Source of the DNA: an uncultured Acidobacteriota bacterium
Lineage (GTDB): Bacteria > Acidobacteriota > Terriglobia > UBA7540
Reading direction: 5' to 3'
Length of the DNA: 64,000 nucleotides
Assembly (NCBI GenBank): GCA_963804995.1
Contig: CAWDSK010000006.1
Coordinates: 1,376,001-1,440,000, forward strand
Shown piece by piece: positions 1,464 to 27,413 of the stretch (positions are counted from its first letter, which is position 1; the number at the start of each line of letters is the position of its first letter). The position numbers were made by a program, and so were the translations under genes. A model generated the notes under the pieces. That model saw only the letters and a program-made list of their open reading frames with translations, did not search any database and was not told the origin of the DNA.

Positions 1464-1629
1464 AAGCTCACAGCCGACAGCCCACAGTCAGTTCCGAGTC
1501 CCGATTCCAGATTCGGGATCGCCGAACCCCGTATCCCGACGCGCGTATCCCGAACCCCGTGTCCCGTTTCCCGTATCCCGCCCCCCGAGACCTTGCTTTC
1601 AGACAATTAGACGCCCCTATTTACGATTT

Positions 1630-1645
1630 GGGCTACCGGAAGCCC
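1630..1645. promoter_or_regulatory. Palindrome GGGCTACCGG(A/T)AGCCC, copy 1 of 3, 17 bp upstream of TTGACA
   Basis: gggctaccggaagccc (one mismatch); TTGACA at 1663-1668; possible extended -10 tgctagcct at 1682-1690. Confidence 0.6.
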
Positions 1646-1904
1646 ATCTGCATATATCTTTCTTGACAATGGCCGGGTCCCTGCTAGCCTATTAAATGGA
1701 GAATTGTGTCGTGGTGAAGTCGAGCACCCTAAAGGCACCCGGAACGCGCCGCGGAAATCGCGCCCTGCCATGCCGACGCCTTGCTGATGCGTCAAATGCA
1801 AGATGGCAACCGGCGGGAAGTCCACCCACTCACCAACCCGCTGCTGAAAATCTAATGCTCAGAGCGCAAAATGGAATCCTGGGAAGCGAGCGACGGGGAC
1901 CTCC

Positions 1905-2172
1905 TAACCCACGATATACTAGAAAACAAAGCTACTTAGGGGCGGAATGGTAGAAATGTCAAAACACCTATGTATTTGAAATCAAATAACATAGCGCGTG
2001 ACGACGGCGTGGGGGCAGCGAGAAGGGGGAATTAAAAATGAAGGTTAAACCCACGATGTTGTTGAAAACAAAGAAAGAAGGAAGTGACATTTTGACTAAT
2101 GCCACGATGTTTATGGAAAATAAGCTAGTTAGTGTTGCTAACCCACGATGTTGTTGAAAATAAAGGATTAAG
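1905..2172 (+). repeat. Array of five ~30-35-bp AT-rich repeats (consensus ~CCCACGATGTTnnTGAAAAyAAAGnnnTTAG), locus A
   Basis: Copies at 1905-1939, 1963-1994 (degenerate), 2047-2073, 2098-2132 and 2139-2172, with unequal spacers. Confidence 0.85.
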
Positions 2173-2404
2173 TCATCTGACGCGAAGTCGATGCGGTGTT
2201 GTCTGGAGGCTCGTGGCGTGCCGCTGCCGGTACCGGACCTCAGATTGAGGCTTCCCCAAAACTCGACGAGGGCCTTCAGAAAATCATTGACGCGCTGGTG
2301 GACTAAATGTAGTTTGGGCTCCTCAGCGCAATTAAGGCAGCAGGCAGCGAGCGCTCTAGCCTTTTGCGCGTGGGCATTCAGGGCAAATCAGGGGGTCCGA
2401 ATCT

Positions 2405-5292: not shown

Positions 5293-5404
5293 TATCGGGC
5301 GGTATTTGATGATTCCGAACGGAGTACTCATCCAGACCATGAAATAACCCGCATATCTTTCAAGTTCTCGCGCATTCTGCCGAAAAGATAGAGGAGGGCC
5401 CTAA

Positions 5405-7419
5405 CCGAACTTTCGCACTTCAGGGTGTTGAGTTGGGTTAACTCGCTTCTTTTCAGTACAGGCATTGCCAAGGTCTGGCCTACAAACGCAGCATTCCAGC
5501 AGGAAAGATTTCCGGCTGGACCGTGATCCTGGGCGGTGGCTGAGTGGGGAGCACGAGCTGCAGTTCGTGCAACAGGAGCTTTTGTTCGGGTGTCGGCTCG
5601 GTGTAGCGGGGCATCACTAATCGGCGCCCATCCGTGGTCGGGAAAGACACATCGAGCATCTGCATGCCCGCCAGCTTCTCCAGCACCGCTTTCGGCGTCA
5701 GGCCCGGAGCGTGGGCCTGCAGACGCTGTTTCAGCGTCACCCACAAGCCGTACGCCAGAAAGGCAATGAGGATGTGGGCCTCGACGCGATGTTCTATTTG
5801 ATGATAAATCGGCCGAATTCCCAGCTCACTCTTCAAACACTTAAAGGCCGCTTCGATCTGCGCCAGTTGCATGTAGCGGTCCCACAACACCTCGGGATTT
5901 TCCCCCGTCAGATTGGTGCGCAACAGATAATGTCCATCGCGCCGCTCCGCTTCCTCCAACTTGCTGCGCTCGAGCCGGAACTGGAAGGTCTGGCGAGTCA
6001 CTTCTTCCTGGGCCTTGGGCACGCTGATCTTCACGAAACCGAAGGCCCGTCCGGCTTCACTCTTGGCTGCTCCGATCTTCATCAGCAACGCATCACGCGT
6101 CGGACACACGCGCCGCAAGGCCCGCAGCCTCCACAACAGCCGTGCCAGCTTGCGTCGACGGATGGCCATCTCTTTCGCCTGGCGGCCTGCGCTCTTCGCC
6201 AGCACATACAACTCGCCTTCCTCCGCGAACAGTTTCACCTCTACCGACTCGCGCACCTTCCGCCACGGCAGTTCCGTCCACTTCGCTTCGTACTGCCGGA
6301 TCTTGCCCCGTGGCGTCCCCACCAGGTAAAACATCTCCCGCCCCGGGGTGCGCATCTCCGCCAGCAGTTCTTCACTGGGAACTCCCCGATCCATCATCCA
6401 CACCCGCCGTGCCTTGCCGTACACGCTCTCGATCTTGTCCAGAAAACCGCGCAAGCTGTTCCGGTCGGAAGTATTCCCCTCCATCACTTCGTAGGCCAGC
6501 GGGAAACCTTCCGGCGTCAGCACCAGGGCGATCACCACCTGCCGACAGTCGAACCGCCCGTCCCGGCTGTAACCGTGGCGGGCTTTGGGAATCGCTTCCG
6601 CCTCTCCTTCCACATAGGTGCTGGTGAGATCGTAGAGGAGCAGATCAAAGCGCGCCGCAAAGAGGTCTTGCCACCGCAGCCGCAGGTGCTGGAACAACTC
6701 CGCCTTGTGCGCCAGTATTCGATCCAGACAACGATAGAGCCGGTCCTTCTCGGCCACCGCGAAGTTCACTGCCAGCAACTCGGCCATGGCGGTCTGATCG
6801 AACCAGTGCCGATGCACACGGAATTCGCTGCCCGGCTCGATCAACCGGTTCACCACCAGCAGCCGTAGCACCTTCTCCCACGGAACTCCCTCGCGCCCTT
6901 CCGGCAACCTCGCCTGCCAGAACTCGTCCAGCTTCAACTGGCGCCACAGCTCGCAGCCCAACCAACAGCCACCGAAGGTGCGCGGCCGCTCAACGCGCAT
7001 TTCACTCAACTTCACTTGTACGCCGTCCACAGCATCCGCAGGAAGTTCGCGGTCCTCCGGGAAGAGGCTCAGGGACGCGAGGACGCGACGGTCCTCGTCA
7101 AAAACCTCCAGCGTCTTGCGCCACGCGGATTGTTGGCTGTCGTTGATTTCGCCCAGATACAGCACCGTCCGATGCACGACCTTCGAGCGCGACACGCGCC
7201 GACTCTCGACGATGCTGAAATAACGATGTTCCTTGCCGTCCTTTTTGCGTCGATGAATCTTCAGGTGCACGCCCCAGAATGCCAGACCTTCGCGCCCCAG
7301 AAAAGAGGGTAGGTCGGGCCTACAAGCACTCTTCAACCCGCGCCCATTGAAGGCAAAGACCTTGTGCACCGCAAGCTGCCAAAATCAGCCCGGTAGCGGG
7401 TGGAAGTGCGAAAGGCAGG
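5405..7419 (-). mobile_element. IS1634-family insertion sequence, copy 1 (2015 bp)
   Basis: 17-bp imperfect TIRs cctgcctttcgcacttc / ccgaactttcgcacttc; 4-bp target duplication CTAA at 5401-5404 and 7420-7423. Confidence 0.92.
5480..7270 (-). CDS. IS1634-family DDE transposase
   Basis: Motifs LLYDLTSTYVEG, GYSRDGRFD, MMDRG, YLLRTN and IEAAFKCLKSELGIRPIYH. Likely start is the GTG at 7270 (MHLKIHRRKKDGK); the ORF track extends to 7369. Confidence 0.93.
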   Translation of the reverse strand: MHLKIHRRKKDGKEHRYFSIVESRRVSRSKVVHRTVLYLGEINDSQQSAWRKTLEVFDEDRRVLASLSLFPEDRELPADAVDGVQVKLSEMRVERPRTFGGCWLGCELWRQLKLDEFWQARLPEGREGVPWEKVLRLLVVNRLIEPGSEFRVHRHWFDQTAMAELLAVNFAVAEKDRLYRCLDRILAHKAELFQHLRLRWQDLFAARFDLLLYDLTSTYVEGEAEAIPKARHGYSRDGRFDCRQVVIALVLTPEGFPLAYEVMEGNTSDRNSLRGFLDKIESVYGKARRVWMMDRGVPSEELLAEMRTPGREMFYLVGTPRGKIRQYEAKWTELPWRKVRESVEVKLFAEEGELYVLAKSAGRQAKEMAIRRRKLARLLWRLRALRRVCPTRDALLMKIGAAKSEAGRAFGFVKISVPKAQEEVTRQTFQFRLERSKLEEAERRDGHYLLRTNLTGENPEVLWDRYMQLAQIEAAFKCLKSELGIRPIYHQIEHRVEAHILIAFLAYGLWVTLKQRLQAHAPGLTPKAVLEKLAGMQMLDVSFPTTDGRRLVMPRYTEPTPEQKLLLHELQLVLPTQPPPRITVQPEIFPAGMLRL

Positions 7420-7699
7420 CTAAGGGCCGGACCGCGGAACCTCAGAACTCCATCCGCGACCTTGGGTGCCCTCACTTCAGCCCAGTGGCCACAAGGTGTA
7501 CCGGGTGTGAAGCATGGGAATAAATGAGAAGGTCCTGAAACGGCGGAGCCAAGGTACCGCCCTTCCCCTGACTGGGGATGAATCCGGACTACACGATTCG
7601 GCGGGTTGGCGACAAGTATGAAGAAAGCCTAGCTGCTACCATGCAAATCGGGTCGGCTGCAAGACTCCTGGCTCTTTACCTCCCCTCGCATTTCCGTGG

Positions 7700-15465: not shown

Positions 15466-15915
15466 ATGAAAACCATATTGGGAGTATTACTGATTCTGAT
15501 TCTGGGCGCCGCGCCAGCGTGGGCGGTCCTGGGTGAATATGAGTCGTCGGTGAGCTTGGATCAACAGGTTTTTGGCGGTGCGCATCGCGAAGAGGCCCGC
15601 CAGGGCTATAAACTTCACGAAATTACTACTCCGGATGGCACGGTGGTGAAGGAATTCGTGTCGCCAGCGGGTTTGGTTTTTGGGATTAGATGGCAGGCGT
15701 CGCACATGCCGAACCTGCAACAGTTAATGGGCTCCAGTATGACGGAGCTGCAGGCGGCCATGCAATCCAAGACGCGCCGACACACGGGGGGACCCTTGAT
15801 CGTGCGCACCGACAAGCTGGTGTTTGTCAGTGGCGGTCATATGCGCTCCTTCCACGGGTATGCCTATGTACCCAGCCTGGTGCCAGGCAACGTCTCGCCG
15901 GAGGTGGTGCAATGA
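15466..15915 (+). CDS. DUF2844-family secreted protein
   Basis: Signal peptide ending PAWA; GTVVKEFVSPAGLVFGIRW, PNLQQLMG, GGHMRSFHG.AYVP; overlaps the DUF3443 start (ATGA). Confidence 0.85.
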   Translation: MKTILGVLLILILGAAPAWAVLGEYESSVSLDQQVFGGAHREEARQGYKLHEITTPDGTVVKEFVSPAGLVFGIRWQASHMPNLQQLMGSSMTELQAAMQSKTRRHTGGPLIVRTDKLVFVSGGHMRSFHGYAYVPSLVPGNVSPEVVQ

Positions 15916-17234
15916 CGCGCAGATTGACTTCGGCGGCCGCAGGGGGCCGTCTGCTTGCTGTGGTAATGGGCTTGATTGCTTTGGCGAGTTGCGGAAGCGG
16001 TGGTGGCACTCCCCCTGCTTCCCCACCCCCACCGACGCCGGTCGGCAACACCGCATCCGTTACGGTGGGCTTTGGGGCCTTGGGAGCCGCGGGTGGGTAC
16101 ACGAATGGGATCTGGACGACGGTGACGGTTTGCGCTCCGGGCAGTACCACCAATTGCGTCGCCGTCCCGGACGTCCTGGTCGATACCGGCTCCGTGGGAT
16201 TGCGTGTCCTTTCTTCGGCGCTGGGCAGCCTCCAACTGCCGCCGATCACTGATGGCAGTAACCCCGCTAATCCGCTGCAGGAGTGCATCCAGTTCGCCGA
16301 CTTCTCCTACATCTGGGGGCCAGTGGTGGTGGGCAACGTTCAGATTGCCGGAGAAACGGCTGCGCAGGTCCCGGGTCAAGCCGCGAACTCAGGAATTCCC
16401 ATCCATGTTATTGGTTCTTCGCCCTACGTCGTGCCCGCGAGTTGCATTACGAACCCCCCCGGCGGTGGTGTGGCGACCCCTCTCGACACGCTGCAGGCAC
16501 TCGGCGGTAACGGTATTCTGGGCATAGGCAACTTCCCCCAGGATTGTGGCAGTAGCTGCGCTTCGGGTTCACAGCCCTATTACTTTCTCTGCCCCGGCGG
16601 CGTCTGCTCCATTGCCTCCGTACCCGAGCAGCTCCAGGTCTTTAATCCCGTTTCGGCGTTTACCTCAGACAACAACGGGGTGTTAATAACTTTACCGTCT
16701 GTCGCTGCCGGCGGCGCCCCCTCCGTCACAGGAACGCTGATTTTCGGTATCGGGACGCAATCCAATAACGCCCTGGGCAGCGCCAAAGTCTACGAGATCG
16801 ACGGGTACGGTAATTTCCCCCAGGTTACACTCAATGGCGTTAACTACATGTCAGGACAGAACACCTTCGGCGGCTTCATTGACAGCGGCTCGAATGCCCT
16901 CTACATCTCTGATGCCACCACCTTGGCCTCGACTGGCATCGTCGAGTGTGCGGGCAACCTCCAGGGTTACTACTGTCCCGCCTCCACGGTCCAACTTACC
17001 CCCACCGTTTTTGGAGCGAATAGTGTCTCGGCCCCAGTTCAGCTCAGCGTCGCAAATGCTGCCACGTTGATTAACAGCGGTAACGCAGTGTTTAACAACG
17101 TGGGTGGGGATAGCGGCATTGGCTTGTCAACAGACTACGTCGATCTGGGAATACCGTTCTTCCTCGGTAAGTCAGTGTTCGTGGGGATTGAGGGTACCAA
17201 CGCTACCTACCCGAACGGCTATTGGGCGTTTTAG
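15912..17234 (+). CDS. DUF3443-family lipoprotein with pepsin-like aspartic protease motifs, copy 1
   Basis: Lipobox LASC; LVDTGSVGL, NGILGIG, FIDSGSNAL, DLGIPFF. ATG 15912 preferred to the track start at 15690. Confidence 0.85.
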   Translation: MTRRLTSAAAGGRLLAVVMGLIALASCGSGGGTPPASPPPPTPVGNTASVTVGFGALGAAGGYTNGIWTTVTVCAPGSTTNCVAVPDVLVDTGSVGLRVLSSALGSLQLPPITDGSNPANPLQECIQFADFSYIWGPVVVGNVQIAGETAAQVPGQAANSGIPIHVIGSSPYVVPASCITNPPGGGVATPLDTLQALGGNGILGIGNFPQDCGSSCASGSQPYYFLCPGGVCSIASVPEQLQVFNPVSAFTSDNNGVLITLPSVAAGGAPSVTGTLIFGIGTQSNNALGSAKVYEIDGYGNFPQVTLNGVNYMSGQNTFGGFIDSGSNALYISDATTLASTGIVECAGNLQGYYCPASTVQLTPTVFGANSVSAPVQLSVANAATLINSGNAVFNNVGGDSGIGLSTDYVDLGIPFFLGKSVFVGIEGTNATYPNGYWAF

Positions 17235-17275
17235 GGTGAAGTCTGAAAGCAGATTGTCGTGCTGAGTTCTTGGTA

Positions 17276-17317
17276 GGGGCGCATCTCAGTTAAGCGGGAT
17301 GCGCCCCTGAATTTTTC
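17276..17317 (+). terminator. Probable intrinsic terminator after DUF3443 copy 1
   Basis: ggggcgcatc...gatgcgcccc stem followed by tgaattttt. Confidence 0.55.
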
Positions 17318-17343
17318 TGTAGCCGCGACTTCCTTTTCAAGCT

Positions 17344-17434
17344 GTAGCGGCGGGTTTACCCCGCCATTTGGCGCCATAGGCGCAACAGACAATGGCGGGG
17401 TAAACCCGCCGCCACGTCAAACTGAACCAGCACC
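17344..17434. repeat. REP/MITE-like element, family 1 (GTAGCGGCGRGTTTACCYCGCC with a TCAAACTGCACCACTACC-type end)
   Basis: Inverted REP pair plus a terminal motif shared with 29782, 44169 and 56582. Confidence 0.8.
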
Positions 17435-17577
17435 GGAGTCCGACAGGACTGGATAGCTTCAAAAATTATGTGGTATCTTGAAAGGTTAAACGCAATACTG
17501 ACAACCTTTCGTAGCGGAATGGTGTCCGAGCATAAGAAGCAAATGGAAAGCCCTGGCGAAGGGCAGCGTGGCATTAT

Positions 17578-17744
17578 ATGAAAACCACTTTGAATCCAAG
17601 ACGCGCCGGCACAGTGGGGGACCTTTGATCGTGAGGACCGATAAGCTGGTGTTTGTCAGCGGCGGTCACATGCGGTCTTTCCACGGGTACGCCTACGTGC
17701 CCAGCCTGGTACCCAAGAACATCACCACGGAGGTGGTGCAGTGA
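17578..17744 (+). pseudogene. Internally deleted second DUF2844 copy
   Basis: Starts atgaaaacca like copy 1, then jumps out of frame to SKTRRHSGGPLIVRTDKLVFVSGGHMRSFHGYAYVPSLVPKNITTEVVQ*; about 280 bp missing; stop overlaps the next GTG. Confidence 0.85.
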
Positions 17745-19093
17745 CCCTTAGGAATGGTTTCGCGGCCTCATGGGGCCGTCTGGTCGCCTTGGCGGTGAGC
17801 CTGATGGTTTTGGCAGGGTGTCGCAACAACAGCCCAACCACCACGCCTACCCCCCCGACCGTGAACAACACAGCGACCGTCCAGGTGGGGCCGCTCAACG
17901 CTTCCACTCCCAATTTGCCTTACCCGAATGGGGTCTATACCACGGTAACCGTTTGTTTGCCCGGCACGCTGATTTGCCAGACAATCCCCAACGTTCTGGT
18001 GGATACGGGTTCCGTGGGGCTGCGCGTCCTGTATTCGGCGCTGGGCAACCTCGCCCCGGAGATGCAGGTGGTGACTGAAGCTGGAAGCAAAAATATTTTG
18101 CAAGAGTGCGTCGAGTTCGCAGACTTCTCCTATACCTGGGGGCCGGTGGCACTGGCCAACATTCAAATTGCCGGAGAATCAGCCACCCAGGTCCCAGGCC
18201 AAACTGCGAATTTTGGGGTTCCCATGCAGATTATCCCCACCAATGCGCAGTTCCCCGTGCCCTCGACGGGTGCTTTGAGCTGCCTCCATTCCCCTCCGGA
18301 CAACGACACTGTCATCGACGACAATACCGTCGAGACGCTTGGAGCCAACGGCATTCTGGGAGTTGGCCTTTTTCCCCAGGATTGCGGCAACAACTGTGGC
18401 CCGGCCTCCGGCAACCTTCCTAACCAGTACTATTACTGCACGCCCGGCGCCTCCTGCCGCATCGCTGCCGTACCCTTGCAATACCAGGTCTGGAACCCCG
18501 TCGCGGCATTCACCTCGACCGACAACAATGGAGTGCTGCTATCTCTGCCGTCGGTGGCTGCGGGCGGCGCCACCTCCGTCACCGGGTCGCTGATCTTCGG
18601 CATCGGAACTCAATCCAACAATGCCCTCGCGAGCGCCACCCTTTACGCTACCGACGAGTACGGCAACTTTCCCATGGTTGTTTACAACGGCGTCCAATAC
18701 AACTCTCCCGCCAATGGAAGCTATCTCAACAGTGGCTCGAACGCCTACTACTTCGTCGATACGACCACCCTGGGCATCGCGGAGTGTCTCGACCAGTCCG
18801 GCAATGCCACGGGGTATTACTGCCCCAGCGCGCCGACCCCATTCACGGTCACCCCGCACGGAGCAAATGGCACATCGAGCGCTGTCATGTTCAGCATCTT
18901 AAACGCCGCCACCTTGTTTGCGAGCGGCAACGCGGCACTCCCCAACCTGGGTGGCGATAGCGGGGTGGGAGCCTCAACGGACTACATCGATCTTGGAATC
19001 CCGTTCTTCTATGGCCGCCCCGTGTTCGTGGGAATTGCGGGTTCGACAGTGCCCAACAATGTAAGCGCCCCATTTGGATACTGGGCGTTTTAG
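17741..19093 (+). CDS. DUF3443-family lipoprotein, copy 2 (second putative catalytic Asp replaced by Asn)
   Basis: Lipobox LAGC; LVDTGS, NGILGVG, YLNSGSN, DLGIPFF; paralog of 15912-17234. Confidence 0.85.
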   Translation: MTLRNGFAASWGRLVALAVSLMVLAGCRNNSPTTTPTPPTVNNTATVQVGPLNASTPNLPYPNGVYTTVTVCLPGTLICQTIPNVLVDTGSVGLRVLYSALGNLAPEMQVVTEAGSKNILQECVEFADFSYTWGPVALANIQIAGESATQVPGQTANFGVPMQIIPTNAQFPVPSTGALSCLHSPPDNDTVIDDNTVETLGANGILGVGLFPQDCGNNCGPASGNLPNQYYYCTPGASCRIAAVPLQYQVWNPVAAFTSTDNNGVLLSLPSVAAGGATSVTGSLIFGIGTQSNNALASATLYATDEYGNFPMVVYNGVQYNSPANGSYLNSGSNAYYFVDTTTLGIAECLDQSGNATGYYCPSAPTPFTVTPHGANGTSSAVMFSILNAATLFASGNAALPNLGGDSGVGASTDYIDLGIPFFYGRPVFVGIAGSTVPNNVSAPFGYWAF

Positions 19094-19249
19094 GCCGCAC
19101 GCAAAGTAACAGGACTTCACCCCATAACCCAGTGCCCACCCGGCAGTCACTGCCAGCTTATAAGGCAATTCCCTTTTCCGTCTTTCTCCGTGGGCTCGGC
19201 GGTAAATTCCGTTTGGATTATTGGAAGGCCTGGGCACTGGAGAATCTAC

Positions 19250-21264
19250 CCTGCCTTTCGCACTTCCACCCGCTACCGGGCTGATTTTGGCAGCTTGCGG
19301 TGCACAAGGTCTTTGCCTTCAATGGGCGCGGGTTGAAGAGTGCTTGTAGGCCCGACCTACCCTCTTTTCTGGGGCGCGAAGGTCTGGCATTCTGGGGCGT
19401 GCACCTGAAGATTCATCGACGCAAAAAGGACGGCAAGGAACATCGTTATTTCAGCATCGTCGAGAGTCGGCGCGTGTCGCGCTCGAAGGTCGTGCATCGG
19501 ACGGTGCTGTATCTGGGCGAAATCAACGACAGCCAACAATCCGCGTGGCGCAAGACGCTGGAGGTTTTTGACGAGGACCGTCGCGTCCTCGCGTCCCTGA
19601 GCCTCTTCCCGGAGGACCGCGAACTTCCTGCGGATGCTGTGGACGGCGTACAAGTGAAGTTGAGTGAAATGCGCGTTGAGCGGCCGCGCACCTTCGGTGG
19701 CTGTTGGTTGGGCTGCGAGCTGTGGCGCCAGTTGAAGCTGGACGAGTTCTGGCAGGCGAGGTTGCCGGAAGGGCGCGAGGGAGTTCCGTGGGAGAAGGTG
19801 CTACGGCTGCTGGTGGTGAACCGGTTGATCGAGCCGGGCAGCGAATTCCGTGTGCATCGGCACTGGTTCGATCAGACCGCCATGGCCGAGTTGCTGGCAG
19901 TGAACTTCGCGGTGGCCGAGAAGGACCGGCTCTATCGTTGTCTGGATCGAATACTGGCGCACAAGGCGGAGTTGTTCCAGCACCTGCGGCTGCGGTGGCA
20001 AGACCTCTTTGCGGCGCGCTTTGATCTGCTCCTCTACGATCTCACCAGCACCTATGTGGAAGGAGAGGCGGAAGCGATTCCCAAAGCCCGCCACGGTTAC
20101 AGCCGGGACGGGCGGTTCGACTGTCGGCAGGTGGTGATCGCCCTGGTGCTGACGCCGGAAGGTTTCCCGCTGGCCTACGAAGTGATGGAGGGGAATACTT
20201 CCGACCGGAACAGCTTGCGCGGTTTTCTGGACAAGATCGAGAGCGTGTACGGCAAGGCACGGCGGGTGTGGATGATGGATCGGGGAGTTCCCAGTGAAGA
20301 ACTGCTGGCGGAGATGCGCACCCCGGGGCGGGAGATGTTTTACCTGGTGGGGACGCCACGGGGCAAGATCCGGCAGTACGAAGCGAAGTGGACGGAACTG
20401 CCGTGGCGGAAGGTGCGCGAGTCGGTAGAGGTGAAACTGTTCGCGGAGGAAGGCGAGTTGTATGTGCTGGCGAAGAGCGCAGGCCGCCAGGCGAAAGAGA
20501 TGGCCATCCGTCGACGCAAGCTGGCACGGCTGTTGTGGAGGCTGCGGGCCTTGCGGCGCGTGTGTCCGACGCGTGATGCGTTGCTGATGAAGATCGGAGC
20601 AGCCAAGAGTGAAGCCGGACGGGCCTTCGGTTTCGTGAAGATCAGCGTGCCCAAGGCCCAGGAAGAAGTGACTCGCCAGACCTTCCAGTTCCGGCTCGAG
20701 CGCAGCAAGTTGGAGGAAGCGGAGCGGCGCGATGGACATTATCTGTTGCGCACCAATCTGACGGGGGAAAATCCCGAGGTGTTGTGGGACCGCTACATGC
20801 AACTGGCGCAGATCGAAGCGGCCTTTAAGTGTTTGAAGAGTGAGCTGGGAATTCGGCCGATTTATCATCAAATAGAACATCGCGTCGAGGCCCACATCCT
20901 CATTGCCTTTCTGGCGTACGGCTTGTGGGTGACGCTGAAACAGCGTCTGCAGGCCCACGCTCCGGGCCTGACGCCGAAAGCGGTGCTGGAGAAGCTGGCG
21001 GGCATGCAGATGCTCGATGTGTCTTTCCCGACCACGGATGGGCGCCGATTAGTGATGCCCCGCTACACCGAGCCGACACCCGAACAAAAGCTCCTGTTGC
21101 ACGAACTGCAGCTCGTGCTCCCCACTCAGCCACCGCCCACGATCACGGTCCAGCCGGAAATCTTTCCTGCTGGAATGCTGCGTTTGTAGGCCAGACCTTG
21201 GCAATGCCTGTACTGAAAAGAAGCGAGTTAACCCAACTCAACACCCTGAAGTGCGAAAGTTCGG
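19250..21264 (+). mobile_element. IS1634-family insertion sequence, copy 2 (2015 bp)
   Basis: Same TIRs as copy 1; own 4-bp target duplication CTAC at 19246-19249 and 21265-21268. Confidence 0.92.
19399..21189 (+). CDS. IS1634-family DDE transposase
   Basis: Protein identical to copy 1 except PPPTIT vs PPPRIT. Confidence 0.93.
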   Translation: MHLKIHRRKKDGKEHRYFSIVESRRVSRSKVVHRTVLYLGEINDSQQSAWRKTLEVFDEDRRVLASLSLFPEDRELPADAVDGVQVKLSEMRVERPRTFGGCWLGCELWRQLKLDEFWQARLPEGREGVPWEKVLRLLVVNRLIEPGSEFRVHRHWFDQTAMAELLAVNFAVAEKDRLYRCLDRILAHKAELFQHLRLRWQDLFAARFDLLLYDLTSTYVEGEAEAIPKARHGYSRDGRFDCRQVVIALVLTPEGFPLAYEVMEGNTSDRNSLRGFLDKIESVYGKARRVWMMDRGVPSEELLAEMRTPGREMFYLVGTPRGKIRQYEAKWTELPWRKVRESVEVKLFAEEGELYVLAKSAGRQAKEMAIRRRKLARLLWRLRALRRVCPTRDALLMKIGAAKSEAGRAFGFVKISVPKAQEEVTRQTFQFRLERSKLEEAERRDGHYLLRTNLTGENPEVLWDRYMQLAQIEAAFKCLKSELGIRPIYHQIEHRVEAHILIAFLAYGLWVTLKQRLQAHAPGLTPKAVLEKLAGMQMLDVSFPTTDGRRLVMPRYTEPTPEQKLLLHELQLVLPTQPPPTITVQPEIFPAGMLRL

Positions 21265-21297
21265 CTACCAAAAGGCCCGTAGCACTGGGCCCGCAAG

Positions 21298-21373
21298 GTA
21301 GCACAGGCACTCCTGCCTGTGAATGCGGCTCGATGTTCGAGCATATCGACACAGCCAGGAGTGGCTGTCCCAC
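21298..21373. repeat. GTAG-type REP-like inverted pair
   Basis: gtagcacaggcactcctgcctgtg ... cacagccaggagtggctgtcccac. Confidence 0.6.
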
Positions 21374-21409
21374 TTTACTCGGACAATTCGTTGCCCGCCT
21401 TGCATTTTT

Positions 21410-21425
21410 GGGCTACCGGTAGCCC
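21410..21425. promoter_or_regulatory. Palindrome GGGCTACCGGTAGCCC, copy 2 of 3, 18 bp upstream of TTGACA
   Basis: Perfect 16-bp palindrome; TTGACA at 21444-21449. Confidence 0.6.
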
Positions 21426-21829
21426 TAACGTGCACATTGCCTATTGACATAGCCTAGTGGATGAAGCGCACAATGGAGGTAGGGAAGCGTAGCGCCCTGA
21501 TGTGTCCAGGTACCCCTTTCTACCGAACAACCACGGGGCCCAAAATGGGGGGTCTGCAATGCTTCACGAACACGCCGACAAACGTCCGGGAAGGGGGGTT
21601 CTGTCAAAAGTTTTATGAAAGGTAATGAAGGGTCGGGAGGTGGGTAGAGCTGGGGGATTTGCCCCCAGACCCCCAGGATTTATCGCTTTGGTGCCAAGAT
21701 GGGTCTGGACTGGGGGAGCGAGTGGGGCTCGCTCCCGACCGATCTCGGCCCCGGGGTCGGCGCTCAGGTCGCATCCCTGCGGAGCCCTATCCTCCGCCCC
21801 GGCCACCGCGAAGTTTACTCCCACCGGGC

Positions 21830-23287
21830 TCAGGCCGCCAGGGCGAGAGCGAGGATCTTGTTCCACTGGCCTTGCAAGGTGGTGAGGGAACTCAACTCCG
21901 GCAAGGGGATGGGTACGCGGTAGCCCAGGGCCAGATGGGGGCGAAGGAAGTTGTAGTGGGTGACGAACAGGGTGGTGAGGGCCACGGCGCCGTTGCGCGT
22001 GGCAAAGCCGCAAGCCGGGCGGACGTGGTATTTGTAGGTGCGATTGAGACGTTCGATGAGTTGCTTGAAGGGGCGGAATTCCTTGGAGACCGCGTCGAGG
22101 TTTTCCAGGCCGATGACCTGCCGCAAGGTATGGGGAGGTTGGGAAGCGGTGCGGTGAGCGTTGAGGAAGTGTACGCCGGCCTGATAAGCGGGGTTGCCGT
22201 CGGTGATGAAACGCAGGGCCTGATCTTCGGGCAAGGTGCGCGCGGCCTCGCCCAGGGCCACGGTGGCGGCCAAGGCATCGCGCTCCGGCGCCACGTGATA
22301 GGACGTGATGCGATGTCCTTGGGGATCGAGAAAGAAGAACGTGTATGGGTGCTTCCCCGCGACGCGAATATAAGTCTCGTCGCCGGTGGCGGTGGCGCTG
22401 AGCGGGGCTTTGTAGCGGAGGTTGAAGGCGTGGCAGTAGTAAGCGGCGGCCTGGGCATAGTTGAGAACGGACTGGTAGCTGAGAGGCACGCCGAAGACTT
22501 GCCGCAGGACCTGGGCGGTCTTGCGGGCGGAGAGGGCGAAAGAGATGTGGAAGGCCAACACCAGGCCCAAGACATCGGAAGAACGATGCAGACGGGTGAG
22601 GTCGACGGTGGGCGGATCGGGAGCGGTGGGGGCCAGTTGGGCGGGTTGAAAGTGGTATTCGCGATACTGGTAACGCAGCTTGAACTGCGTGCGGCGCAGC
22701 TTCTGGAGCAACTTCTCGTTCCAGTGCAGGGCTTGCTGCTTCTGGAGATAGTGAGGACAACGCTCGCCAGGACATTTGTAGATGGTGCAATCGGCACGCT
22801 GCTTCCAGCGGAAGAGGGAGCTGCCGCAGTAGGGGCACCAGTAAGGAGTTTTCGTCGGGCGATGACAACGAGCGATTTGCGACAGCCGGCCACAGACTTT
22901 GCAGCGCAGTTGGCGGGCGTGACGGCCATCGTTGAGGTAGAGGAAGTCGCGCGGTGCGCCGCAGTGGGCACAACGACAAGTGGGAGGCAGGGGGTGGGCG
23001 CCAGAACGCTGAATCGGAGCCAACGGTCGGCGGTGCTGGCGCTGGTACTGAGCCAGCAACTGCCGCCAGTTCCAGGTGCGAGGTGCCGGAGGCGGCTGGG
23101 TCAAGGGAGCCAGAGGGTCAACGTAGAAGTCGCGATAGTGTGGATGCTGCTGGCGAAAGTCGTCGCGGGGTTGAGGCTCGGGCTGGCGCCCGGCGAGAAT
23201 CTCTTGCAGTTGCTCAACCAGTTCCTGCAAATCCTGGCGGGTAAATTTCCTACAGAGCCAAAGCACCAATCGTGGTATCTTGCCCAT
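21830..23287 (-). CDS. DDE transposase/integrase (IS6/IS1-like) with several N-terminal Cys clusters
   Basis: GDETYIRV, ITDGNPAY, IERLNRTYK catalytic motifs; CAHC, CKVC, CPYC and CPGERC zinc-ribbon-like pairs. Confidence 0.85.
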   Translation of the reverse strand: MGKIPRLVLWLCRKFTRQDLQELVEQLQEILAGRQPEPQPRDDFRQQHPHYRDFYVDPLAPLTQPPPAPRTWNWRQLLAQYQRQHRRPLAPIQRSGAHPLPPTCRCAHCGAPRDFLYLNDGRHARQLRCKVCGRLSQIARCHRPTKTPYWCPYCGSSLFRWKQRADCTIYKCPGERCPHYLQKQQALHWNEKLLQKLRRTQFKLRYQYREYHFQPAQLAPTAPDPPTVDLTRLHRSSDVLGLVLAFHISFALSARKTAQVLRQVFGVPLSYQSVLNYAQAAAYYCHAFNLRYKAPLSATATGDETYIRVAGKHPYTFFFLDPQGHRITSYHVAPERDALAATVALGEAARTLPEDQALRFITDGNPAYQAGVHFLNAHRTASQPPHTLRQVIGLENLDAVSKEFRPFKQLIERLNRTYKYHVRPACGFATRNGAVALTTLFVTHYNFLRPHLALGYRVPIPLPELSSLTTLQGQWNKILALALAA

Positions 23288-23444
23288 GGCGGTGAGTCTC
23301 TCGGGAACCTGGCGGGTTCCCTACAAGGTGGATTGGGAAAGAGAGACTTCACCGCCCTTTTTGTTTGCCGTCAAGCCCCACGACGCAGTTACGTCCAGGA
23401 ACTTAAGCGCGGCAACCCGACCGCACCTCACGCCAACGTCCTAG

Positions 23445-25081
23445 GAGCCTGTCGGAGATAGATTTTGGCCGCAGGAGGGATCCAGTCGCAAGATTTTCGG
23501 GGGGGGCATTGGATTGATTATTGATAGTTTTAGAAGATGTTGTAAGATGGAGTTATGGGCAAACAGTTTCGGAGTTGCGATTTAAATCAGGCGTACTTGC
23601 TCCCGCCCTCGTTGCAGGATTGGCTGCCGGAGGGTCACCTGGCGCGGTTCGTGGCGGAGGTGGTGGAAGCCTTAGACCTGTCGGCGATTTACGCGAAGTA
23701 CGAAGCGGGAGATGGGCGGGGGCTGGCGGCGTACGATCCGCGGATGATGGTCCGGGTGCTGATTTACGGTTACTGCCGAGGGGTGGCGAGTTCGCGACGG
23801 ATCGAGCGGGCGACGTACGAGGACGTGGCGTTCCGGTATTTGGCGGCCGACCAGCATCCGGATCACGACACGATCGCGACCTTCCGGCAGGAGCACTTGG
23901 TGCCCTTGGCGCAATTGTTCGTGCAGGTGTTGCAGTTGTGCCAGCGGGCGGGCCTGGTGAAGCTGGGGCACGTGGCGCTGGACGGGACGAAGATCAAGGC
24001 CAACGCCTCGAAGCACAAGGCGATGAGCTACGAGCGGATGGAGAAGGCGGAGAAGGAATTAGCCGCGGAAGTGCAGGCGCTGCTGGCCGAGGCGGCACGG
24101 GTAGACGCCGAGGAAGATGGAAAATATGGGAAGGGTAAGCGCGGCGACGAACTGCCGAAGGAACTGGCGCGGCGCGAGAGCCGGTTAGAGAAGATTCGGG
24201 AGGCGAAGGCGGCACTGGAGCAAGAGGCAAAAGAGGCGGCGGAAAAGAAGCAGGCGGAGGTGGCGGCGCAATTAAAGGAGCGGGCGAAGCAGGAACGGGA
24301 ACGGGGGCGGAAGTTCGGGGGCCGACCGCCGCAGGCGCCGGACGCGGAAGCGGCGAAACCGGAGCCCCAAGCGCAACGGAATTTTACCGACCCGGATTCG
24401 CGCATCATGAAGGACGGAGCGACGAAAGAGTTTGTGCAAGCCTATAACGCCCAGGCGGCGGTGGACAGTCACGCGCAAGTGATCGTGGGGGCGGCGGTGA
24501 CGCAGGAAGCCAACGACAAGAAGCAGTTGGTACCGATGCTGAAGGAAGTGAAAGCGCAGATGGGGCGACCGCCGCGGCAAGCGACGGCGGACAACGGGTA
24601 TTTCAGCGAGCCCAACGTCACCGATGCGCAGGTGCGGGAGATCGATCTGTTCGTAGCGCCGGACGCTCAGAAGCACAGCGAGAAACCGCCCGTCACGACC
24701 GGGCCTCCGCCCTCCGGGGCCAGCGTGGCCGAGCAGATGCGGCACAAGCTGCGCACGGCGGAAGGACAGGCGGTTTATAAACTGCGCAAGGCGGTGGTGG
24801 AACCGGTCTTTGGACAGATCAAAGAGGCGCGCGGGTTTCGGAGATTCCTGCTGCGAGGACTGAGGAAAGTGCAGGCGGAATGGCAGATGATCTGTGCCAC
24901 GCACAACCTGTTGAAACTCTTCCGCTCGGGATGGAGCCCCCAAAGGGCCTGAAAGCGCTGGCCCAACCGACCCCGTTGCTCGCGTGGACGGCCTGGCCAG
25001 CGTCAAATGCCTAACATTCGGTTCGCGGAGAACGAGAGTCGGTAAAAAGTAAGATTGTGGGGCCGTATCTCCGACGGGCTC
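23445..25081 (+). mobile_element. IS1182-family insertion sequence (1637 bp)
   Basis: TIRs gagcctgtcggagata / tatctccgacgggctc (15/16); CTAG duplication at 23441-23444 and 25082-25085. Confidence 0.93.
23555..24952 (+). CDS. IS1182-family transposase
   Basis: LLPPSLQDWLPEGHLA, YDPRMM, PDHDTIATFR, ALDGTKIKANAS, TDPDSRIM, ADNGY, VEPVFGQIK. Confidence 0.95.
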   Translation: MGKQFRSCDLNQAYLLPPSLQDWLPEGHLARFVAEVVEALDLSAIYAKYEAGDGRGLAAYDPRMMVRVLIYGYCRGVASSRRIERATYEDVAFRYLAADQHPDHDTIATFRQEHLVPLAQLFVQVLQLCQRAGLVKLGHVALDGTKIKANASKHKAMSYERMEKAEKELAAEVQALLAEAARVDAEEDGKYGKGKRGDELPKELARRESRLEKIREAKAALEQEAKEAAEKKQAEVAAQLKERAKQERERGRKFGGRPPQAPDAEAAKPEPQAQRNFTDPDSRIMKDGATKEFVQAYNAQAAVDSHAQVIVGAAVTQEANDKKQLVPMLKEVKAQMGRPPRQATADNGYFSEPNVTDAQVREIDLFVAPDAQKHSEKPPVTTGPPPSGASVAEQMRHKLRTAEGQAVYKLRKAVVEPVFGQIKEARGFRRFLLRGLRKVQAEWQMICATHNLLKLFRSGWSPQRA

Positions 25082-25200
25082 CTAGTCAAGCGCACCCGGA
25101 GGGGGGAGAAAGCAGAAAATCCAGTTTCTCCCAGCAATTCAATGGGTTATCGCCTTAGGGGACAAAAATTCTTGACACAACCCACTGATCCGTAGAGATG

Positions 25201-25981
25201 TTAAAAATGAAGGTCGATCCGGGGATGTGTATGAAAACACAGGAGAGGGGACGATTTGTCAGGCTATTTTTCGATCTTTTTGCAGAAAATTCCGGAGTTT
25301 TGTGACAATGGACGGCAAACGATCGGGATTGTGGGCCGACAATGCACAGGTTATACGGAAATTCGGGGCGAATCAGCGCCGACCTTTAGAGCCCTCCCCG
25401 AACACTTCCGGTTATCGGCGGGTTGGGGCACGAACCTGAGCTCACCAATCGGCCTGGAGCTGGGCAATCCCGCACCCTCGATGGGGCATCGCAGACGGGC
25501 GGAAGGTGGTGGGTCAAATGGAGGACGTAGCGGCGAGTTTACCTTGCCCAAGGGGGGCGTCCCGATAGGATCGAGATCGATTCCGCCCCGTGGGCATCAT
25601 GTTGGCTCACGACCCTATCCCACGATGTTTCAGATAACAAAAGGAGTTAGCGAAGAGGAGCAAAAACTCGCAAAATGCAACTCATTGAAACCACAACAGT
25701 AATGAAATTGGCTGAAGTTTACGCACGCCGGTATCCCACGATGTTATAGAAAGCAAAGGGGGTTAGTGATGGGGAGAAGAAACCCGGCAAATATCTATCT
25801 AATTGAAAAAAGGGGAGTTAATTGATTTGCTGCCAATGGGGCGACGGAAAAAGGGGGAATTATTATTTGCGCCTTTCTTCCGGCGCCTTTAGATGTAACT
25901 ACTTTTATTTCAACTAGATAGATTTTTGCTAAAAACCCCATTTCTACCCCTAACCCCCTTTATTTTCATTAACATCTTCAC
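25201..25981. repeat. AT-rich repeat array, locus B, ending in a ~245-bp imperfect inverted repeat
   Basis: Plus-strand copies at ~25201-25243, 25616-25650, 25674-25703 (degenerate), 25732-25766 and 25789-25820; minus-strand copies at ~25896-25927 and 25950-25981. Confidence 0.85.
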
Positions 25982-27101
25982 AAGCAGCGGGCGCTTCTGA
26001 ACCTTCTGCACGCGAAGCCTGCCGTTTAATCTTCATAAGCAGGTTCGTCAAGCGCCAGATTTGGCGAAAGTAGGAGTCTTCCATTCTCTGCATGACCATT
26101 GCAGAGAGATGGGTAGGCGCGATTTCTGCGGCACGTTCATAAGGCGAGGGACCTTTCACGCACTCCCGCAGATTGGCAAGGCGCTCCATCTCGCACAACT
26201 CCACCTGACGCGTCAGGATGTGCTGCAGAAGTTGGCGCACCCGCTCCCGAGATTCCCATTCCTCCTCCGTAATCTGGGGATAATCGGCCTGCCTTGTATC
26301 GGCGGCCTGCAAATCGGCACTTGCCTCTGTAGCGCCGACCTTGAGGTCGGCACTTACCGGATCGAAGTCCGCCGGCACGTCGCCTTCCTCGTCCGGCGGG
26401 GTTTCCGGCTCCAACCCGAAGCCCCGTTGCCTTTCTTCCTCCCGGGTGAAGGGGGGCAAATTAAAGATGGCTCGGGCCTGAGTCACGACTCGGCGGGCGT
26501 TCTCAAGCTCATCCTCCACTTCACCCGCTTCTTCCGATTCCACAGCCCCCGGCGCCTGAAGCTGGCAGAAGAGTGCGAGAGCGATTTCGCCCAATTCCTT
26601 CATGGCTCCCTCGCGGCGCAAGTTCTTCATTTGCTCGAGGTCTTCGGGCGTGGTGACGTAATATTCCTGTGCCACCGATTGGGCGAGCATCTGCAAAACG
26701 GCGGAATTCATTTTCAGATTCATCATGTGCGCGTGCAGGCGGGCCTCCCGGCCGCGGTTTGCCTCCTGCGCCTGCCGCACGGCCATGCCCTCCTGCATGC
26801 GGTCAAAACGCTTCATCCGCCACAGGGCCCGCGCCAGACGCTCCACCAATTCTTCCTCCGAACCGCTGCGGGGGCGCCACTCGCACTGGAGTTTTTCCCG
26901 CAGTTCCCGAAGGTCGGCTGAATCCTCACCCAGGTCGAGCAAGGCGGTTTCTTCCCACTGCGCGTAACGTCCATGGCGCAAGTGCGCGGCGCGGATGCGC
27001 TCCACGCCCTCCGCCGTCTTCGGGCCGTGCGAATGCTTTCGGTTGCGCCGAAGGGCGGCCAGTTTCTTGGCCGTCAGGCGCGGCTTCTTGACCAGTGACA
27101 T
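25950..27101 (-). CDS. Uncharacterised protein with an N-terminal 'N..HS.GPKT..G......RHG' (STGPRT/HGGxSTG-like) motif
   Basis: GGAGG RBS before ATG 27101; KKLAALRRNRKHSHGPKTAEGVERIRAAHLRHG, EEELVERLARALWRMKR, and a late helix RMEDSYFRQIWRLTNLL. Confidence 0.8.
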   Translation of the reverse strand: MSLVKKPRLTAKKLAALRRNRKHSHGPKTAEGVERIRAAHLRHGRYAQWEETALLDLGEDSADLRELREKLQCEWRPRSGSEEELVERLARALWRMKRFDRMQEGMAVRQAQEANRGREARLHAHMMNLKMNSAVLQMLAQSVAQEYYVTTPEDLEQMKNLRREGAMKELGEIALALFCQLQAPGAVESEEAGEVEDELENARRVVTQARAIFNLPPFTREEERQRGFGLEPETPPDEEGDVPADFDPVSADLKVGATEASADLQAADTRQADYPQITEEEWESRERVRQLLQHILTRQVELCEMERLANLRECVKGPSPYERAAEIAPTHLSAMVMQRMEDSYFRQIWRLTNLLMKIKRQASRAEGSEAPAACEDVNENKGG

Positions 27102-27134
27102 AAAACCTCCAAGGGCGGATACGGGATACAGGAT

Positions 27135-27197
27135 TCGCAAAGGGCGCTCGCTGCCTATCCCGACTTGTCGGGACTCGCAAAAGGCGCTCGCTGCCTA
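27135..27197. repeat. 23-bp direct repeat around the mini-palindrome TCCCGACTTGTCGGGA
   Basis: tcgcaaa(g/a)ggcgctcgctgccta at 27135-27157 and 27175-27197. Confidence 0.85.
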
Positions 27198-27280
27198 GAC
27201 CTTACTGCTTCTCCCCAACCCCCCAGTACCCAGTTTAACATTTACTTTAGGGGTATCTGCAAGTGGAAGATTTACGAGTT

Positions 27281-27296
27281 GGGCTACCGGTAGCCC
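27281..27296. promoter_or_regulatory. Palindrome GGGCTACCGGTAGCCC, copy 3 of 3
   Basis: Extends to ttgggctaccggtagcccaa; shares the upstream atttacga with copy 1; lies between divergent genes. Confidence 0.6.
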
Positions 27297-27413
27297 AAAC
27301 GGGCAAAAATCTTTTGGCGAGGGCGTCTAATTGCCCGAAATCGTTCTTGCGCTCGCTGGTAAGGGTCACAGAACCCCAGCACCCCGGGGCATATCGGCGT
27401 TAAACTGTCGCTC

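Follow-up and report, generated by a model that had tools for sequence, protein, structure and literature searches.

A one-gene, repeat-bearing unit of Terriglobia that may exploit a phage-like packaging operon

Two joined copies of a multi-copy unit

The locus described here (21410..27296) lies in a 64-kb window (G000:C6:1376001-1440000), the whole stretch of DNA that was analysed, from the genome (G000) of an uncultured Acidobacteriota bacterium. It contains the gene of a 383-aa protein, P0001, whose homologs carry Terriglobia names, together with short repeats, two palindromes and a block of insertion sequences (IS). A sequence-only reading had taken these features, without the IS block, for a single 2.3-kb unit with a palindrome at each end. 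As judged from the sequence, the locus is two copies of a multi-copy unit, A and B, which meet tail to tail at 25862 (Table 1), and the order of the unit is palindrome, promoter, gene and phased repeat array. The palindromes are the heads of two convergent copies, and the 2.3-kb arrangement is the product of a rearrangement, as indicated by the junction, its reciprocal on contig C5 and the gene order of relatives. Terminal repeats, as an explanation of the palindromes, and a hairpin telomere were rejected.

From 27299 to 25862, copy A matches C4:37155-38592 at 98%, and copy B matches other copies up to the same base, 25862. Intact copies have three further repeats, and copies A and B both end 19-23 bp before the first of these. 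The missing ends of A and B were found joined head to head at the reciprocal junction, where the best match of the A-type end was the C4 copy. The window junction is spanned by contigs of runs X2 and X3, both from one study. In 3 of the 14 genomes examined (G015, G007 and G043), the gene beside copy A adjoins the gene beyond the C5 junction (presumably leuC-like), and in G043 the DUF3443 gene beside copy B adjoins the other C5 flank gene. The comparison of filled and empty sites suggested by the earlier reading thus gave the predicted gene order: both sites are empty in these relatives at the gene level, the relatives being too diverged for base-level ends. This gene order without the units confirms the exchange between the window and C5. 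The head-to-head pattern was present in 1 of 29 genus genomes, and the junction was therefore regarded as a single event; a scan for the pattern across all genome contigs returned AT-rich noise only.

Several details of the earlier reading held. TTGACA is present 18 nt after the first palindrome, the stop codon of the 383-aa gene falls within a repeat copy, and the nested IS block exists, with an IS1182 transposase inside a DDE element. About seven irregularly spaced repeats had been reported; six matrix matches were found in 25200-26000, plus one degenerate copy by eye near 25678, and these are not one array, since four lie on the plus strand and two on the minus strand and belong to two copies. 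Their spacing seems irregular because the arrays were cut, intact arrays being regular.

The palindrome was matched four times in the window at ≤3 mismatches, against 0.32 expected. At ≤1 mismatch it was found at 66 sites in G000, at seven each in G007 and G015 and at one in G021, and it was absent from the other 37 of the 41 genomes scanned. In G000, 52 of 67 palindromes are followed within 1.5 kb by a repeat on the same strand (mirror control, 1). Their context is fixed and asymmetric: CGGACAAT stands about 30 nt before the palindrome, and in 56 of the 67 a -35 box follows at 17-18 nt; given this context and the trailing repeats, each palindrome is the head of one copy. The palindrome is spread genome-wide, as it would be if it were independent of the gene family, but is confined to the unit family and one phage-like operon. 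A metagenome scan for the palindrome gave eight loci, two of them element-like and none usable as an empty site. In five loci (L328, L331, L334 and L337 in G008; L016 in G003), the left module (a GGACAAT-like motif plus the palindrome) was seen in reverse order relative to the gene.

Homologs of P0001 were found in 23 of 24 same-genus genomes, usually many times. G000 has 10 family N-termini and 43 copies which keep both ends, 32 of them shorter than 1.4 kb. The third copy in the window is also internally deleted, with five repeats at gaps of 56, 86, 51 and 41. Across the genus, 60 of 79 homologous loci fetched have at least two repeats, and the repeat matrix gave 285 matches at the 79 loci, the opposite strand and coding DNA yielding 1 each. 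The enrichment of the repeat in homolog flanks that had been anticipated was thus observed; that of the palindrome was partial, its core being present in 33 of 76 element loci (control, 7). Gaps between repeats are close to whole helical turns: 40/41 bp (47 times), 51 (40), 55 (22) and 61 (10), and also 86-89 and 126/127. The 3' half of the repeat resembles what we take to be the consensus of integration host factor (IHF).

Table 1. Positions of the unit copies and associated features in the window, and of the phage-like operon
Feature	Position	Strand	Remarks
Third copy, internally deleted	1600..2175	+	Palindrome at 1630; gene-end remnant
Left-end motif CGGACAATT, copy B	21380..21388	+	Conserved ~30 nt before nearly every palindrome
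Palindrome, copy B	21410..21425	+	Likely activator site, ~26 nt upstream of -35 box, from sequence
-35 box TTGACA, copy B	21444..21449	+	18 nt past palindrome; sequence
IS6/IS3-like DDE element in copy B	21597..25182	-	Passenger; transposase 21830-23287
IS1182 element nested in DDE element	23441..25085	+	396.9 bits (NCBIfam cut-off 270); inverted repeats
Copy B, remainder	25183..25862	+	Remnant of a paralog's last codons, REP-like insert, first repeats
Copy B repeats	Matrix starts 25223, 25623, 25739, 25795	+	Last three repeats missing
Junction of copies B and A, tail to tail	25860..25865		No strand; reciprocal junction G000:C5:473558-473629
Copy A first two repeats	25863..25985 (matrix starts 25977, 25921)	-	First overlaps last codons and stop
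Copy A gene, P0001	25950..27101	-	Intact; 383 aa, all-helical; likely repeat-binding adaptor, from sequence
-35-like box TTGCAG, copy A	27257..27262	-	18 nt past palindrome; sequence
Palindrome, copy A	27281..27296	-	
Left-end motif CGGGCAATT, copy A	27329..27337	-	Sequence
Endolysin, large terminase and portal operon	G000:C5:301168-313000 (L413:8168-20000)		PHROGs

The protein and its repeats

P0001 and its homologs gave nothing significant in Pfam, NCBIfam and PHROGs scans, in agreement with the earlier description of the gene as uncharacterised. No transposase domain (DDE, HUH, serine or DEDD) was detected, as P0001 had no Pfam or NCBIfam family and none was shared among 79 aligned members, and a sequence search of the PDB and two Atlas searches returned no named family. 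Full-text literature searches, which left supplements outside their scope and covered subscription papers thinly, gave no description of the family. It comprises 3,729 clusters at 50% identity, and its distant members are named in Acidobacteriota, Planctomycetota, Chloroflexota and Armatimonadota. One distant member had no phage match, another had no viral-contig match, and three weak plasmid matches were obtained. At some loci of distant members the repeat has a different word, of the CGAAACGAACCC type, and two Planctomycetota loci have a 42-bp period. One distant homolog, P0267, has about five repeats of the STGP motif, suggestive of a DNA-binding unit of modular build. A CRISPR-like array was seen downstream of the distant homolog at L175.

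The predicted structure is all-helical and without strands (pLDDT 86 for the full model and 80.5 for the core model). The fold searches with the full model, which the earlier reading had recommended, returned generic helical bundles only (the best with Z 10.1 and rmsd 2.5 over 109 residues), and neither a nuclease or recombinase nor TerS was among the matches; such generic matches to a model do not show the fold to be new. Of 12 proteins scanned, two matched a small-terminase PHROGs profile weakly (E 0.042 and 0.095). In the wide family, residues H, E, E, W, R and R are nearly invariant and the consensus has an RY motif, the Y of which is M or L in the clade of P0001.

The bases before ATGT in the repeat are common within a copy and different between copies (identity of the 7-nt word 0.83 within and 0.42 between, 58 elements). 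After removal of four near-duplicates (78 to 74 elements), the top mutual-information pairs of 110 x 8 involved residues 17, 4, 24 and 7. Four loci were then dropped for a mis-called word or a frameshifted or gapped N-terminus (L244, L247, L293 and L241), leaving 70 copies. Among these, residue 17 followed one base of the repeat, with N and C together in 42 of 44, S and T in 9 of 10, R/H and G in 7 of 8, and I/V/L with A or G in 8 of 8 as tabulated. GA accompanied R4 in 11 of 11 copies and other residues in 0 of 59; for H7 the bases were AA or AT in 13 of 13, plus 4 others. On three trees, residue 17 shared 16 of 17, 15 of 16 and 20 of 22 changes of one base, the median for other residues being 0.35-0.44; of about 97 residues it ranked highest on the protein and array trees and shared the top rank on the upstream tree. 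Independent pairs gave p 0.004 for residue 17 on the protein tree. The rules for S17, R/H17 and H7 recurred in a deep separate clade of 10 (2/2 each); those for V/L4 and R7 were not significant (p 0.125). P0001 itself has L17 and V4, and its array end on C5 has TAACG in all three repeats. Because the repeat base tracks residue 17, the protein likely reads its own repeats, and the conserved arrays together with this co-variation make the earlier proposal that P0001 binds them likely.

The other option raised earlier, that the array is transcribed into small RNAs which guide or pair with the protein, is given hardly any credence here. The array does lie directly downstream of a promoter-bearing gene, but it has no Rfam match, the folding of intact arrays barely exceeds that of shuffled sequence (z -0.6 to -1.7), the spacers are conserved in length at multiples of the DNA helical turn, and the variable part is common to all repeats of a copy, unlike guide spacers. 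Neither constant repeats with variable spacers nor a structured RNA, the traits of RNA-guided arrays (CRISPR, TIGR and bridge RNA), were found. A strong fold of window positions 25600-25980 (z -4.8) was rejected as an RNA structure, since it results from the two inverted arrays.

A shared promoter and possible routes of spread

The operon that has the palindrome encodes an endolysin, a large terminase and a portal, and in G000 four array-less palindromes (C5:300717-301094) lie within the two promoters ahead of it. It is found at one locus in most genus genomes. Of 29 genus genomes, 23 have the portal, in most cases with 76-89% identity, and in 9 of the 13 relatives that have the first gene of the operon, this gene and the portal lie 8-12 kb apart on the same contig. 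This is a lysis and packaging cluster conserved across related genomes, as in a gene transfer agent (GTA), and by its genes the operon is a candidate GTA or domesticated prophage. The core palindrome was found upstream of the first gene at 11 of 14 loci, two of the 14 being weak protein matches, against 1 of 14 in the control. Nine relatives have two core palindromes at a distance of 42 bp; the one closer to the -35 box precedes it by 17-18 nt, like the palindrome of the elements. The variants also agree: in G000, both operon and elements use GGG...CCC palindrome flanks, and in relatives with two copies the operon flanks are TTCC...GGAA or near variants, as in many of their elements. A position of about -61 fits an activator site (class I activation), and the palindrome is better read, from its placement, as a promoter switch common to the unit and the phage-like operon. 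Two operon promoters without the palindrome (L421 in G005 and L425 in G020) have, by eye, TGTAGCCT or a TGTAGGC motif before the -35 box, and a similar TAGCCT motif was seen by eye before element promoters L003, L004, L005 and L265; these motifs are possibly a second type of activator site.

The common promoter layout and variant, and the presence of the gene in nearly every same-genus genome, would also be expected if the protein were a host-side or defensive regulator of the operon, co-induced with it and blocking or titrating packaging, the palindrome copies soaking up activator. This was judged very improbable, as the sites vary between genomes and are empty in relatives, and as a word of its own with matching residues in each copy fits selfish self-recognition better than a host function.

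The ends of the copies bear on how the unit moves. The flanks that copies share are ragged at either side, frequently stopping inside repeats which we take to be repetitive extragenic palindromic (REP)-like, and in many copies unique DNA directly adjoins the left motif or the last repeat. The 43 copies showed no target duplication, their own flanks sharing 4.88 nt, against 4.85 for mismatched pairs. Neither fixed ends nor inverted terminal repeats were found among the copies, no att-like repeat was found at unit ends, and each unit has one gene. Three copies (C2:20833, C5:32740 and C9:148105) have upstream flanks that are 95-97% identical over more than 700 bp.

Under one alternative, which we consider unlikely, the protein is a recombinase or transposase of a new fold; bound to the array, it would cut some 20 bp upstream of the third-last repeat and mobilise the unit, with the shared promoter only timing its expression. 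The reciprocal break at the same register in two copies, the near-invariant residues with the consensus RY motif, and recent copies (93-99% identity) at different loci in G008 speak for it. The lack of fixed ends and of target duplication speaks against it, as do the all-helical model without a nuclease or recombinase match, the M or L in place of the Y in the clade of P0001, and a break inside the unit and not at its ends.

That the unit is passive cargo of REP-associated tyrosine transposases (RAYTs) or of recombination between flanking REPs, the protein-array pair serving to autoregulate or bridge DNA, for example, appears distinctly unlikely. Common flanks that stop inside REP-like repeats and the 14 Y1_Tnp matches in G000 would accord with it. 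So would the comparison of the window and C4 copies, which have 26 mismatches but none between offsets 104 and 1195 (1,092 bp), their ends differing; this pattern suggests that the interiors were homogenised by gene conversion. Copies with unique DNA beside their ends are difficult for this explanation, and it leaves unaccounted for the retention of both ends by deleted copies, the constant spacing at helical turns and the operon-type promoter.

The preferred reading is that the unit protein is a small-terminase-like adaptor which steers the resident phage-like, possibly GTA, packaging to the unit, and from the sequence evidence its chances are put at about even. The activator of the endolysin-terminase-portal operon would bind the palindrome, so that the unit gene would be switched on when particles are made. 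Residues 1-25 would bind the repeats, with IHF-type bending between them, and the protein-array complex would recruit the large terminase of the operon, leading to a cut near the array. Packaged DNA would then enter new cells and be fixed by homologous recombination, and short REP homologies could give new sites with ragged ends. The anatomy of the unit, deleted copies keeping their ends, empty sites, array spacing, co-variation, the common promoter and the same-register reciprocal break are consistent with this. The earlier proposal that protein, repeats and palindrome form one system is supported; that of one 2.3-kb palindrome-ended unit is not. The full picture is offered tentatively, at somewhat under an even chance: a one-gene, enzyme-free selfish element that hijacks a domesticated GTA-like packaging system of Terriglobia with a copied operon switch and its own adaptor with a simple residue-to-base code, spreads by packaging and recombination, and is one of a very large family without annotation that extends across several phyla.

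Several points weigh against the adaptor reading. Binding, cutting and packaging by the unit protein are predictions, and the small-terminase matches are too weak to count as homology. The junction is one event, a join with 3 extra bases, and short AT-rich microhomology could have caused it; by analogy with lambda, moreover, packaging would proceed over the side with the last three repeats, away from the gene. A common activator site shows common timing, not hijacking, and the palindrome core is missing from 43 of the 76 element loci and from 3 of the 14 operon loci. The G000 copy of the large terminase is split by a stop and may therefore be inactive, and the gene content of the operon, including for capsid, tail, integrase and replication genes, was read over 20 kb. 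The residue-base rules were chosen after the data were seen. The array-DNA and upstream-DNA trees gave too few informative pairs per rule for significance, and on them the R4 rule was left with 4-6 changes instead of 9, so that co-inherited ends account for part of the signal.

If the hijack of a GTA-like system is true, it would be a direct case of cheating on GTA packaging, with a bearing on why GTAs are kept. It would give a large unannotated protein family a function and a target, and would offer a compact arm for DNA binding in which three or four residues may determine specificity. The results also suggest that peat Acidobacteriota have a GTA-like operon, with its activator site, that has not been described. 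To our knowledge, known mobile elements carry or borrow a recombinase; the unit, unlike them, seems to be without fixed ends and without an enzyme.

Neighbouring elements and known systems

The best match of the DDE element in copy B was IS6, under the NCBIfam cut-off, and its insertion site is contiguous without it in C6:1467564, C3:923544 and C6:2009168; the IS block was rejected as part of the protein-repeat system. An IS6-like element lies at the same position in at least four B-type copies at different loci (the window, C3:402213, C6:923035 and C9:175767), being either carried along with the copies or inserted at a hot spot. Two of about 19 genome-wide IS1634 copies are in the window (19245-21267 and about 5400-7420), one directly beside copy B. 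Three distinct REP-like families, with tens of copies each, are represented at window 21289-21373, 25495-25590 and 27131-27215, and tandem DUF3443 lipoprotein-like genes lie at 15690-19093.

In REP/RAYT systems (REPINs) and in IS with miniature inverted-repeat transposable elements, one autonomous gene is accompanied by many short non-autonomous copies keeping the cis sequences. The unit likewise has many short copies that keep cis sequences, but neither a recombinase domain (HUH, DDE, serine or tyrosine) nor inverted terminal repeats nor a target duplication was found for it. GTAs such as RcGTA are conserved chromosomal clusters for lysis and packaging. The putative helper operon resembles them, as judged from its genes, in lying at one locus per genome across the genus, and differs in the internal stop of the G000 large terminase.

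The array can also be compared with lambda cosB. The site of the unit lies at the 3' end of a gene, and its repeats all face one way, each with its own half resembling what we take to be the IHF consensus. In cosB there are three R sequences and one IHF site, with R3 at bp 50-65 (PMC9026076). Three terminal protein-binding repeats (predicted for the unit), IHF-like sites and a break on one side are common to both (PMC9026076); the break in the unit is 19-23 bp from the first repeat, in contrast to the distance given there for R3 (PMC9026076).

The unit differs from phage-inducible chromosomal islands (PICIs) in its size of about 1.6 kb, its single gene, its dozens of copies per chromosome with ragged ends, and its candidate helper, a conserved chromosomal operon. 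Small terminases of PICIs and of Staphylococcus aureus pathogenicity islands, such as TerS of the latter, redirect the large terminase of a helper to a site beside their own gene. The same is described for the PICI protein Rpp, a DNA-binding protein encoded by the element (PMC9026076). As in Rpp and the PICI small terminases (PMC9026076), the predicted specificity residues of the unit protein vary with the site. The models of the unit protein, which have no strands, show no winged helix, a further difference. No integrase, att ends or replication module of a PICI or phage satellite was found in the unit, nor the marks of an IS, and by analogy it would work most like the packaging hijack of PICIs.

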